Below are positions 5,899-10,809 of a DNA stretch of 64,000 nt, piece after piece. Source of the DNA: Escherichia coli (lineage in GTDB: Bacteria > Pseudomonadota > Gammaproteobacteria > Enterobacterales > Enterobacteriaceae). The notes beneath the pieces are model-generated. The model was not told the DNA's origin. It worked only from the letters and a program-made list of their open reading frames with translations, and ran no database searches. Position 1 is the first letter of the stretch; the number at the start of each line of letters is the position of its first letter. Location of the stretch: NCBI RefSeq assembly GCF_030384885.1, contig NZ_CP128613.1, one strand, 5' to 3'. The position numbers and the translations under genes are program-made.

Positions 5899-8325
5899 TT
5901 AAACCTTTTCGATCTGGACGAGATTGCTGTGCGACGGGTTTCCCTTTGCCAGCGGTGAAGGGCGGTGAGAGGTCAGAATATTGATACTGCCGCCGTGATC
6001 GACCCGGTCACCAAACATATCCGCTTTAAGCCACGCACCTTGCCCGATGGCGGTAACGCCAGGCAGAATACGCGGAGTCACTTTTGCGGCAATCAGCATT
6101 TCTCCATTATTGTTAAATACCCGCACGGTATCGCCATGACGGATACCGCGTGCCTGAGCATCAATGGGGTTGATCCACACCTCTTGTGGGCAGGCCTGCT
6201 GTAACACATCAATATTGCCGTAGCTGGAGTGGGTACGCGCTTTGTAGTGGAAGCCCGTTAACTGCAGTGGATAGGTTTTGCGCAGGGGATCGTCCCAGCC
6301 ATCAAAACCTGGGGTATACGCAGGAAGGGGATGAATTATTTCATCTTTTTTCAATTCCCATGTGTCAGCAATCGTCGCCAGCCGTTCAGAATAAATTTCG
6401 ATTTTCCCCGAAGGTGTTTTCAACGGGTTTGCCTGTGGATCTTCACGGAATGCGCGGAAAGCGACGTAATGTTCTTCCGGGCATTTTTTCTTAAAGATCC
6501 CGGTCGTTTTCATCTCCTCGTAGTCCGGCATCTCAGGGTTACGTTCCTTCGTTTTCGCATGGAGATATTTGATCCATTCATGCTGGCTGCGACCTTCAGT
6601 AAAAGTTTGATAAACGTCTGGTCCTAAGCGTTTCGCGACTTCACTCAGAATCCAGTAGATGGGTTTGCGTTCAAATTTTGCCGAGGTGGCGGGTTGGGCG
6701 AGGATCACATAGCCCATATTCCCTGCAGATTCATGAGAGATAAGGTCTTCTTGCTCTGTTGGCATCAGGTCGGGCAACAGGATATCGCAATACTTAGCCG
6801 AGGCCGTCATGAAGTGGTCAATGCCAACAATCATCTCGCACTTGCTGTCATCCTGAAGCACCTCATGGGTGTGATTGATGTCGCCATGTTGATTGATCAA
6901 TGTGTTACTGGCGTAGCACCACAAAAACTTGATTGGCACATCCAGTTTCTCTTTTCCACGAATACCATCACGGGTCGCGGTCATTTCCGTACCGTGGTCG
7001 ATGGCATCTGTCCATGTAAAGACGGAAATCTGCGTTTTAACAGGATTATCAAGCATCGGGAACCATTCGACCCCCAGATCCCAGCTACCTTCGCGTACAC
7101 CTGAGTTGCCGCCGTTTATGCCGACGTTACCGGTGAGAACGGAAAGCATGGCAATAGCGCGGGACGTTTGCTCGCCGTTGGAGTGTCGTTGTGGCCCCCA
7201 ACCCTGACAAATATAAGCAGGTTTTGCTGAACCGATCTCTCGTGCCAACTGGATAATTTTTTCTGCCGGGATGCTGGTGATTTTTGCTGCCCATTCCGGC
7301 GTTTTAGCTATGCCGTCAGGCCCTTCGCCCAGAATATAGGCTTTATAATGCGCGTTACGTGGTGCGTTGGCGGGCAGCGTTTTTTCATCGTAACCAACAC
7401 AATATTTGTCGAGAAATGGCTGATCGACCATGTTTTCCGTAATCAGTACCCAGGCAATCGCACAGGCCAGTGCGCCATCGGTGCCAGGGCGAATGGGCAG
7501 CCATTCATCTTCACGCCCGGCAGCTGTGTCGTTATAACGTGGATCAATGACGATCATGCGTGCGTTTGAACGTTCGCGGGCTTGCTCGACGTAGTAAGTG
7601 ACACCACCGCCGCTCATCCGGGTTTCTGCCGGGTTATTTCCGAACATAACGACCAGCTTCGTATTGGCGATATCATCCGGGCTGTTGCCATCATTGGCAC
7701 CGAACATATAACTCATTGCGGCACTGATCTGTGCGGTACTGTAGCTGCCATAGCGACTGAGAAAACCACCACAAGAGTTCATCAGACGGTACGGGACGTT
7801 TGAGTTGGTGATGTTTCCGCCATCTACGCCTGTTCCATAGAGAACATGTACAGCCTCATTTCCGTAATCTTTTAGGATCCGCCGAAGATTATCACTGATG
7901 GTATCCAGGGCTTCGTCCCAACTTATCCGTTCAAATTTACCTTCACCGCGCTTGCCGACGCGCTTCATGGGATATTTCAGCCGATCAGGATGATTCATCC
8001 GTCGGCGGATAGAGCGCCCGCGTAAACAGGCCCGAACCTGATGATTACCGTAAACGTCGTCACCTGTCGTATCAGACTCCACCCAGTACACAGTGTCATC
8101 TTTCACATGCAAACGTAACAGACAGCGGCTCCCGCAGTTAACGGTGCAGGAACTCCAGACCGCTTTCTCTTCTACCGGAGCCTCTGCCGCTCGGACCATT
8201 TGGGAAAATGGCAGAGTGAAAGCACTGCTTGCCAGCGCGAGACTGCCAAGTGCGGAGGTTTTCATCAGACTTCTACGGCTGATTTCAGCCTTCATGAGCG
8301 CCTCTGTGGTATGGATTTTCATCAT
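5899..8325 (-). CDS. ynfF: Molybdopterin oxidoreductase catalytic subunit (DmsA paralogue), Tat signal
   Basis: 808 aa, N-terminal SRRSLMK twin-arginine motif; tandem paralogue of ynfE. Confidence 0.9.
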   Translation of the reverse strand: MMKIHTTEALMKAEISRRSLMKTSALGSLALASSAFTLPFSQMVRAAEAPVEEKAVWSSCTVNCGSRCLLRLHVKDDTVYWVESDTTGDDVYGNHQVRACLRGRSIRRRMNHPDRLKYPMKRVGKRGEGKFERISWDEALDTISDNLRRILKDYGNEAVHVLYGTGVDGGNITNSNVPYRLMNSCGGFLSRYGSYSTAQISAAMSYMFGANDGNSPDDIANTKLVVMFGNNPAETRMSGGGVTYYVEQARERSNARMIVIDPRYNDTAAGREDEWLPIRPGTDGALACAIAWVLITENMVDQPFLDKYCVGYDEKTLPANAPRNAHYKAYILGEGPDGIAKTPEWAAKITSIPAEKIIQLAREIGSAKPAYICQGWGPQRHSNGEQTSRAIAMLSVLTGNVGINGGNSGVREGSWDLGVEWFPMLDNPVKTQISVFTWTDAIDHGTEMTATRDGIRGKEKLDVPIKFLWCYASNTLINQHGDINHTHEVLQDDSKCEMIVGIDHFMTASAKYCDILLPDLMPTEQEDLISHESAGNMGYVILAQPATSAKFERKPIYWILSEVAKRLGPDVYQTFTEGRSQHEWIKYLHAKTKERNPEMPDYEEMKTTGIFKKKCPEEHYVAFRAFREDPQANPLKTPSGKIEIYSERLATIADTWELKKDEIIHPLPAYTPGFDGWDDPLRKTYPLQLTGFHYKARTHSSYGNIDVLQQACPQEVWINPIDAQARGIRHGDTVRVFNNNGEMLIAAKVTPRILPGVTAIGQGAWLKADMFGDRVDHGGSINILTSHRPSPLAKGNPSHSNLVQIEKV

Positions 8326-10809: not shown

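Follow-up and report, generated by a model that had tools for sequence, protein, structure and literature searches.

Two molybdoenzyme genes that lie side by side in Escherichia coli raise the question of whether they behave as a recombining DNA repeat or as two old paralogs that have gone separate ways. The genes were found in a 64,000-nucleotide stretch of contig NZ_CP128613.1, hereafter referred to as the window. A preliminary description presented them as ynfF and ynfE, tandem paralogs sharing long near-identical nucleotide stretches and therefore a substrate for unequal recombination or gene conversion. Here, gene identity, repeat geometry, divergence, clade structure, and natural hybrids with their junctions were determined. 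Our reading, to which we assign a probability of roughly 0.93, is that these are ynfE and ynfF of a known operon, an anciently duplicated pair that has evolved independently, the DNA similarity of which is mostly imposed by the protein sequences, and which is occasionally collapsed in register to a hybrid gene.

The description was exact about the two minus-strand 808-aa open reading frames and the direct repeat of about 2.4 kb that they form (Table 1), and its gene names and tandem-paralog reading are correct as well, since each protein passes its own NCBIfam cut-off and fails the other's. The ynfE product scored 1797.5 bits with NF041885 (YnfE, cut-off 1675) and only 1480.5 with NF041884 (YnfF, cut-off 1650); the ynfF product scored 1774.2 bits with the latter and only 1480.3 with the former. 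Both exceed the cut-off of 778 of TIGR02166, the dmsA_ynfE subfamily of type I A subunits in the DMSO reductase family (1285 and 1398 bits), and the gathering scores of PF04879, PF00384 and PF01568; in the ynfE product the Fe4S4 domain covers residues 49–108, Molybdopterin 111–566 and Molydop_binding 687–800. Tat signal peptide motifs, SRRTLVK in YnfE and SRRSLMK in YnfF, were read from the translations. In a profile search of the window proteins, ynfH had no NCBIfam match of its own. The genes share one strand, in the order A-A-B-C-chaperone, and are separated by short spacers, 57 nt between ynfE and ynfF and 10 nt (GGAGTAGCCC) between the ynfF stop codon and the ynfG start, and the operon is flanked by conserved ynfD upstream and clcB downstream. 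The 57-nt spacer was scanned for promoter-like and terminator-like sites, and none was found.

Table 1. Positions in the window of the genes, the initially quoted motif and the homologs of the hybrid crossover sites
Feature	Coordinates	Strand	Remarks
ynfE	8383..10809	-	Selenate/tellurate reductase operon, first of its two catalytic (A) subunit genes; 808 aa
ynfF	5899..8325	-	Second catalytic (A) subunit gene, ynfE paralog, 808 aa
ynfE-ynfF spacer, 57 nt	8326..8382	-	Unique sequence that arose with the duplication
ynfG	5271..5888	-	Shared iron-sulfur (B) subunit; NCBIfam TIGR02951, 266 bits (cut-off 214)
ynfH	4415..5269	-	Membrane anchor (C) subunit; open reading frame; E. coli records annotate ynfH at this position
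dmsD	3758..4381	-	Chaperone in Tat proofreading of DmsA, YnfE and YnfF (PMC5203670); NCBIfam NF008632, 344.6 bits (cut-off 162)
Quoted motif, ynfF copy	6634..6679	+	
Quoted motif, ynfE copy	9118..9163	+	1 mismatch beyond the 3 wildcard positions
JCC-EE 7-type crossover homolog, ynfE side	10103..10119	-	Identity tract AACCCGGCAGAAACCCG, 17 nt in the window; gene positions 690–704
JCC-EE 7-type crossover homolog, ynfF side	7619..7635	-	Same 17-nt identity tract
ECONIH4-type crossover homolog, ynfE side	9653..9664	-	Gene positions 1146–1157; about 8–11 nt of identity, AACGGCGA in the parental background
ECONIH4-type crossover homolog, ynfF side	7169..7180	-	

The locus is thus the ynfEFGH-dmsD operon already known from E. 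coli; publications cover the operon, the paralogy and the identity of 71% between the two proteins, and these points carry little weight as discoveries. The operon is described as that of a selenate/tellurate reductase (Lubitz and Weiner 2003, as cited in PMC5203670 and PMC12096835; a further source, Guymer et al. 2009, is cited in PMC5203670). YnfF is 71% identical to YnfE and a minor contributor to selenate reduction, and the signal peptides of both are bound by DmsD (PMC5203670). PMC12724226 terms the two proteins 'paralogous selenate reductase isoenzymes' and reports loss of selenate reduction in a delta-ynfEF mutant. YnfE and YnfF are each a Tat-exported molybdopterin/[4Fe-4S] subunit expected to assemble with two common partners, the Fe-S protein YnfG and the membrane anchor YnfH, with DmsD as chaperone; judging by the literature, the resulting enzyme would be a DmsABC-like selenate/tellurate reductase under anaerobic regulation.

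Dimethyl sulfoxide reductase DmsABC belongs to the same enzyme family, has the same subunit architecture and shares the DmsD chaperone, but DmsA is 64–69% identical to YnfE and YnfF, which both failed the DmsA-specific cut-off of 1600 (1315 and 1349). Gene order in K-12 MG1655 (b1585-b1592) is the same, ynfC / ynfD-ynfE-ynfF-ynfG-ynfH-dmsD-clcB; the window is 96.3% identical to K-12 in ynfE and 98.0% in ynfF, its ynfE allele being somewhat divergent, and in structure the two loci do not differ. The closest sequenced relative, E. coli 2013C-4282, is 100% identical to the window from position 5804 on and carries a prophage in ynfG, which the window lineage lacks.

The repeat is direct, head-to-tail and in register over 2.4 kb, with an offset of 2484 nt that becomes 2496 nt close to the 5′ ends. 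Its copies are much less alike than had been proposed. The proteins are 71% identical. Codon-aligned nucleotide identity is 69.4% (79, 84 and 46% at codon positions 1, 2 and 3) and peaks at 81% over 100 nt, and the longest exact common runs are 20, 17, 17 and 15 nt. We compared these values with a null model in which codons were resampled with both protein sequences held fixed. The model predicts 66.8 ± 0.6% nucleotide identity; its longest run reached at least 20 nt in 38% of simulations, and at least 7 runs of at least 14 nt occurred in 10%. Identical codons at identical residues are in small excess (49.8% observed, 43.7% expected). The DNA similarity of ynfE and ynfF is therefore mostly a consequence of protein conservation, and the alternative that the preliminary description itself had named as fatal to its claim, similarity at the protein rather than the nucleotide level, nearly holds. 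The motif quoted as an example of near-identity is present in both genes, with no occurrence expected by chance, but it lies among the best-conserved patches and is atypical. The mirrored antisense open reading frames attributed to the repeat are real in part: 6 of the 9 plus-strand frames of at least 50 aa in ynfF overlap a same-frame counterpart at +2484 in ynfE, but they are ordinary shadow frames of coding sequence.

Population data had been suggested as a place to look for copy-number variants, and such variants exist. Complete E. coli genomes (5426) were searched with three synthetic chimera designs that jointly span crossovers along the whole gene. Wild-type genomes match such a query with 100% coverage and about 88% identity, as megablast runs through the homeologous part, and true fusions rank first by identity. 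A single intact 5′-ynfE/3′-ynfF hybrid was found in 10 genomes (0.18%), in each case exactly in register and without a mobile element. All ten match a synthetic chimera as one unbroken 3017-nt piece, the loci having lost exactly 2484 nt relative to the wild type, and are annotated as one 2427-nt coding sequence between ynfG and ynfD; the hybrids account for the generic 'DmsA/YnfE/YnfF family' label in the annotation of some strains.

There are two independent junctions, one in eight genomes (ECONIH4, six 0H strains and CAVP776) and the other in two (JCC-EE 7 and CP137696). The two types make a clean single switch from E to F at 621 of 632 and 622 of 632 diagnostic sites, within identity tracts of about 8–15 nt, and encode 808-aa proteins that are intact and retain the three domains. 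The crossovers fall near residues 231–236 and 383–386, both within the molybdopterin domain. Immediately before the ECONIH4-type switch, on its upstream side, the sequence alternates briefly as E-F-E-F, which may reflect heteroduplex repair or a parental polymorphism. Over about 6 kb, the JCC-EE 7 locus has 4 differences from MG1655. No E/F fusion is reported among the literature titles and abstract openings covered. Since the wild type gives the same coverage of a chimera query as a triplication would, the reciprocal product was sought through the copy number of the unique E-F junction, which is single in 5287 of the 5426 genomes; no more than one genome has it twice and could hold the triplication. 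The proposed role in unequal recombination is thus borne out in kind, at low frequency and by way of very short tracts rather than long near-identical stretches. Being rare, and possibly neutral or mildly deleterious accidents, the hybrids make 'recombination substrate' a minor property of the locus.

In-register homeology would occasionally collapse the pair through an exact 2484-nt deletion, by RecA-dependent homeologous crossover or by replication slippage at short repeats. RecA-independent slippage, or microhomology-mediated repair, between short direct repeats at homologous positions is a serious candidate, which we place at somewhat less than even odds. RecA recombination in E. coli has a minimal efficient processing segment of about 20–30 bp, and the junction tracts fall below or near this length; overall divergence of 30% should, moreover, strongly suppress RecA/MutS-permitted crossovers. 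Other deletions in ynfE and ynfF (95, 104, 274 and 580 nt) are out of register and show 0–4 nt of microhomology at their junctions. The hybrids, unlike these deletions, formed exactly in register at two different sites, which suggests guidance by an extended homeologous alignment. Delta/beta-globin fusion genes (PMC4041002) likewise arise by in-register deletion between tandem paralogs that leaves one intact chimera, its 5′ part coming from the upstream copy and its 3′ part from the downstream one. Unlike the parents of globin-type unequal-crossover hybrids, those of the ynf hybrids are only about 70% identical, with junction tracts of about 8–15 nt, and no gene conversion is detectable alongside.

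It is rather unlikely that single A genes result mainly from mobile elements and random deletions, with no special part for paralog homology, although such lesions are plentiful. A prophage interrupts ynfG (L003, and 2013C-4282 in L093), an integrase island truncates ynfE (L002), a ynfF pseudogene with 580-nt and 274-nt deletions occurs in dozens among the genomes listed, and internal deletions occur also in ynfE. Insertion sequence-mediated E/F joins are present in at least 4 EHEC genomes, those of O145 and O111 strains involving IS3-family elements, one of them 210 nt out of register. As a sole cause, these processes are contradicted by the ten clean in-register hybrids; they are complementary to homology-based collapse and do not exclude it. 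Variants H26, H29 and H30, considered as copy-number variants, turned out to be internal deletions or prophage/island insertions. One ynfE remnant (L007) aligns poorly, with 87% identity over the aligned part.

The gene conversion that had been proposed finds no support. The locus was surveyed in 80 species, and a neighbor-joining distance tree separated the F clade (bootstrap 100), the E clade (98) and both from an outgroup clade of DmsA-like proteins (100), E and F being reciprocally monophyletic across genera. Identity between E and F is 71–73% within a genome and 72–73% across genomes, whereas between genera it is 87–90% for E-E and 91–93% for F-F pairs; paralogs of one genome are thus no closer than orthologs. 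At about 600 diagnostic sites no E/F mosaic was found in the alleles examined, the hybrids excepted. Strain A39 (H71), suspected of a ynfF-to-ynfE conversion, proved to have a pure ynfF with a 104-nt deletion. A young or actively homogenized pair, in which long near-identical tracts drive frequent conversion and copy-number change, is very improbable and largely refuted: the in-register repeat, the slight excesses of codon and nucleotide identity and the existence of hybrids speak for it, and third-position identity of 46%, a longest run unremarkable under the null model, reciprocal monophyly, pure alleles and the almost invariably single E-F junction speak against it.

By these comparisons the ynfE/ynfF duplication is ancient, the copies having evolved apart since. 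The basal position of the F clade could partly be a long-branch effect of the distance tree; this is countered by the equidistance of K-12 YnfF from YnfE of E. coli (72.0%), Salmonella (73.0%) and Budvicia (71.2%). The 2.4-kb repeat is what remains of this tandem duplication of the A-subunit gene, in which ynfF retained the ancestral A-to-B junction and ynfE acquired the new 57-nt spacer downstream. The GGAGTAGCCC spacer is kept as the A-to-B junction in genera with ynfE only. With synonymous sites near saturation and concerted evolution absent, the DNA similarity that remains, 69%, is mostly imposed by the proteins.

The srnABCD operon of Enterobacter cloacae SLD1a-1 (PMC12724226) has one A subunit, compared with two here. 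Such a single-A layout, ynfE-ynfG-ynfH-dmsD without ynfF, is the state of most Enterobacteriaceae genera surveyed, and these E-only layouts suggest that srnA is an ortholog of YnfE specifically. E. whittamii has a single A gene with an F-type 3′ end. Because ynfE-only genera share this 3′ end as the ancestral state of E, sequence alone is indecisive on a terminal E/F fusion there. We regard as quite doubtful a broader scheme in which in-register collapse at very short identity tracts has been a recurrent route of ynfF loss in Enterobacterales (E. whittamii, the Citrobacter freundii complex and most other genera), always restoring the ancestral A-to-B junction, with the present E. coli hybrids being functional natural domain swaps of the catalytic subunit and not dead ends.

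The locus provides a calibration. A tandem repeat of 2.4 kb that is about 70% identical is similar mostly at the protein level and has undergone no concerted evolution over the divergence of enteric genera, yet it has collapsed to a hybrid in about 1 in 500 sequenced E. coli genomes. The hybrids, which may be functional, could serve as ready-made chimeras for mapping the distinctions between YnfE and YnfF.

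The two A-subunit genes, ynfE and ynfF, are 808-aa ORFs lying exactly where the preliminary description had placed them, and the gene order that follows is the same as in K-12 b1587-b1591. YnfE and YnfF each fall below the other's NCBIfam cut-off, at ~1480 bits, and both miss the cut-off of the DmsA-specific model. The Fe4S4, molybdopterin-oxidoreductase and molybdopterin-dinucleotide-binding domains are all present in both proteins, and a twin-arginine motif was read from the N-terminus of each translation (SRRTLVK in YnfE, SRRSLMK in YnfF). Spacers measure 57 nt between ynfE and ynfF and 10 nt between ynfF and ynfG; a consensus scan of the E-F spacer revealed neither promoter-like nor terminator-like sites. 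Published work describes ynfEFGH-dmsD as a DmsABC-like selenate/tellurate reductase, Tat- and DmsD-dependent, terms YnfE and YnfF 'paralogous isoenzymes' with 71% identity, and assigns YnfF a small share in selenate reduction in Salmonella (PMC5203670, PMC12724226, PMC12096835). The genes, the operon, the paralogy and the 71% identity are already published, and the pair is an ordinary known feature.

Features of the ynf region in window coordinates
Feature	Coordinates	Strand	Description
ynfE	8383-10809	-	808-aa ORF; NCBIfam YnfE 1797.5 bits, cut-off 1675
ynfF	5899-8325	-	808-aa ORF; NCBIfam YnfF 1774.2 bits, cut-off 1650
ynfG	5271-5888	-	downstream of ynfF, same strand
ynfH	4415-5269	-	downstream of ynfG, same strand
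dmsD	3758-4381	-	downstream of ynfH, same strand
JCC-EE 7-type switch tract	10103-10119 / 7619-7635		17 nt

The genes do form a direct repeat, with a start-to-start spacing of 2484 nt, which small indels widen to 2496 nt towards the 5' ends, and ungapped blocks 72-76% identical. The motif quoted earlier as common to both was found at 6634-6679 and 9118-9163, with 0 occurrences expected by chance. However, the 'long near-identical nucleotide stretches' of the preliminary description were an overstatement: in a codon-guided alignment the DNA is only 69.4% identical (79% at first, 84% at second and 46% at third codon positions), no 100-nt window exceeds 81%, and the longest exact runs are 20, 17, 17 and 15 nt. 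The proteins are 71% identical (570/801). These values were compared with a null in which both proteins were fixed and each codon was redrawn independently from the genes' own usage, 1000 times. The expected nucleotide identity was 66.8 ± 0.6%; in 38% of simulations the longest run reached 20 nt or more, and 10% had at least seven runs of at least 14 nt; identical residues had the same codon in 49.8% of cases, compared to 43.7% expected. The residual synonymous signal is small, and the rest of the nucleotide similarity is that of any 71%-identical protein pair with E. coli codon usage. This is close to the outcome named in the preliminary description as refuting it, similarity of the proteins but not of the nucleotides.

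On the plus strand, ynfF contains nine ORFs of at least 50 aa and ynfE seven, most of them sharing one frame relative to sense codons. Their reported mirroring is partial: when shifted by +2484, six of the nine in ynfF overlap an ORF of ynfE in the same frame, a coincidence due to paralogy. These ORFs are shadows of the coding frame, with no hint that those in ynfE or ynfF are genes.

The wild-type region was present at ≥80% coverage in 5123 of 5426 complete E. coli genomes. Recombinants were sought with synthetic F/E chimeras (ynfG flank, 3' part of ynfF, 5' part of ynfE, upstream flank) switching at three positions that jointly cover switches along the whole gene. True fusions ranked as top matches, each aligning as one unbroken 3017-nt piece. 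Eight genomes are of one type (ECONIH4, 0H15/18/23/24/25/26 and CAVP776) and two of another (JCC-EE 7 and CP137696). Since the three designs span the whole gene, clean fusions total 10/5426 genomes (0.18%), from two events. All have one 2427-nt CDS between ynfG and ynfD, in a locus shorter than wild type by exactly 2484 nt. Typing at ~630 E-vs-F distinguishing sites revealed an E-type 5' end, an F-type 3' end and one switch, with 621/632 and 622/632 sites fitting. The JCC-EE 7 type switches at gene positions 690-704, within 14-15 nt that the two parents share, and its flanks have only 4 differences from K-12 MG1655 in ~6 kb. The ECONIH4 type switches at positions 1146-1157, over ~8-11 nt of identity, with a short E-F-E-F pattern just upstream. 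Each hybrid gene encodes an intact 808-aa protein retaining all three domains, and in both the switch falls within the molybdopterin domain. The JCC-EE 7 hybrid clears the YnfF cut-off; the ECONIH4 hybrid is annotated generically because it is just under both specific cut-offs (1642.9 vs 1650 for YnfF, 1615.7 vs 1675 for YnfE).

The population data support the proposal that the repeat is a substrate for unequal recombination, used very occasionally and over tracts of ~8-15 nt. The hybrid deletions may have arisen by RecA-mediated homeologous crossover, and a register exact at two separate sites speaks for such guidance by homology; they may instead reflect replication slippage between 8-17-nt direct repeats, which the shortness of the identity tracts favors. 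A reciprocal product would hold the unique E-stop/spacer/F-start junction twice. This junction was found once in 5287, twice in 1 and not at all in 138 of the 5426 genomes. The lone genome with two chromosomal copies could carry an E-(F/E)-F triplication or a larger segmental duplication, or be an assembly artefact.

E/F joins via an IS3-family element (IS629/IS1203-like) also occur in EHEC. In O145 RM9154-C1 (L006:1800-5538) ynfE(1-1485) is joined through the IS to ynfF(1483-end), in register to within 3 nt, with ynfE's own triplet AAA on the left and ynfF's homologous triplet AAG on the right. As these triplets are non-identical, the sequence suggests that both paralogues were hit independently at homologous positions and then joined by IS x IS recombination; such flanks do not fit a hybrid that already existed when the element inserted. 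In O111:H8 SF26 102-1 (L010:1300-5248) the join, ynfE(1-1614)-IS1203-ynfF(1405-end), is 210 nt out of register.

Other lesions are independent of paralogy. A ynfF pseudogene with deletions of 580 nt and 274 nt, neither with junction microhomology, is present in dozens of genomes among the matches listed, including SE15. This allele (L001:2129-3698 and further listed matches), found also in many human isolates, lies beside an intact ynfE, which fits ynfF being dispensable. Strain A39 has a 104-nt ynfF deletion, and internal deletions of ynfE are also seen in E. coli genomes, as is an integrase island truncating ynfE. Junction microhomology at resolved internal deletions is 0-4 nt, in contrast to the exactly in-register hybrids. 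Inactivation of one paralogue is due to mobile elements and random deletions at least as often as to the paralogy. In E600003 (Bangladesh) and five related strains (L007:4284-5426) ynfE is cut to a 1143-nt intact ORF annotated 'molybdopterin-dependent oxidoreductase'; the remnant is E-type over its first ~1200 nt and aligns poorly beyond.

Prophages inserted in ynfG are likewise unrelated to paralogy. The window's closest relative, E. coli 2013C-4282, is identical to it at 7688/7688 positions from 5804 onward and has a prophage in ynfG exactly at the point matching 5804, whereas the window has none. The gene is a prophage integration site, intact in the window; a lambdoid prophage splits it ~80 nt from the 5' end in 2013C-4282 (L093:1-9398) and in an O157:H16 strain (L003:5541-10540).

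A scan of species-representative genomes returned 80 loci with a YnfE orthologue (79-96% identity), none of them from E. coli itself. Flanks are syntenic across Enterobacteriaceae, with ynfC and ynfD upstream and dmsD and clcB downstream. Among these loci, only those of two Salmonella enterica subspecies, Citrobacter amalonaticus and Pseudocitrobacter faecalis have a YnfF orthologue after YnfE, at 90-92% identity to the YnfF of the window; in most genera ynfG follows directly. In many Enterobacter, Lelliottia, Yokenella and related species (eight loci and others) dmsD follows directly, without ynfG or ynfH, leaving catalytic subunit and chaperone with no local Fe-S or membrane-anchor subunit. 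In Serratia, Rahnella, Ewingella and relatives (nine loci) the next gene is DmsA-like. This second A subunit of Yersiniaceae is 75-83% identical to E. coli DmsA and is followed by B, C and dmsD; therefore, the tandem of two different A subunits with a common B/C set recurs, with a different second partner.

In a neighbor-joining tree of 764 ungapped columns, a distance tree in which some long-branch effect is possible, bootstrap support was 100 for the F clade, 98 for the E clade (31 taxa, out to Budvicia) and 100 for E+F versus DmsA-like proteins. Orthologues of different genera are 87-90% (E-E) and 91-93% (F-F) identical, far closer than E is to F, and K-12 YnfF is equidistant from YnfE of E. 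coli (72.0%), Salmonella (73.0%) and Budvicia (71.2%). Because the clades are separate and K-12 YnfF equidistant, the sequences argue for a duplication no younger than the sampled YnfE radiation, rather than a recent fast-diverged copy, and for ynfF having probably been lost many times. Whichever age holds, neither the tree nor the identities reveal the proposed gene conversion: E and F are 71.1-72.8% identical within a genome and 71.9-73.0% across genomes, with no sign of homogenisation.

In genera with ynfE alone the gene ends in ...EKV/EKA*, followed by GGAnTAnCCnATG-ynfG, which is the arrangement of ynfF in E. coli; ynfF therefore kept the ancestral junction, and ynfE gained the new 57-nt spacer. 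In Escherichia whittamii Sa2BVA5 (L012:4501-7552) a lone A-subunit gene directly adjoins ynfG. The gene is E-type at 144/145 clade-fixed diagnostic sites; its last codons are those of ynfF, and the 10-nt spacer GGAGTAGCCC follows. Either ynfF was secondarily lost through a crossover within the final ~10 nt (AGATCGAAAA), which parsimony on the YnfE tree prefers, or the single gene is the ancestral state retained.

Frequent gene conversion or copy-number change at ynfE/ynfF is rejected. The best-supported account is that an ancient tandem duplication gave two isoenzyme genes evolving independently with common B, C and chaperone genes, and that homeologous alignment of the two very occasionally leads to in-register deletion. 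To the known operon this analysis makes modest additions: natural in-register hybrids, evidence that speaks against conversion, and the finding that ynfF is retained patchily.
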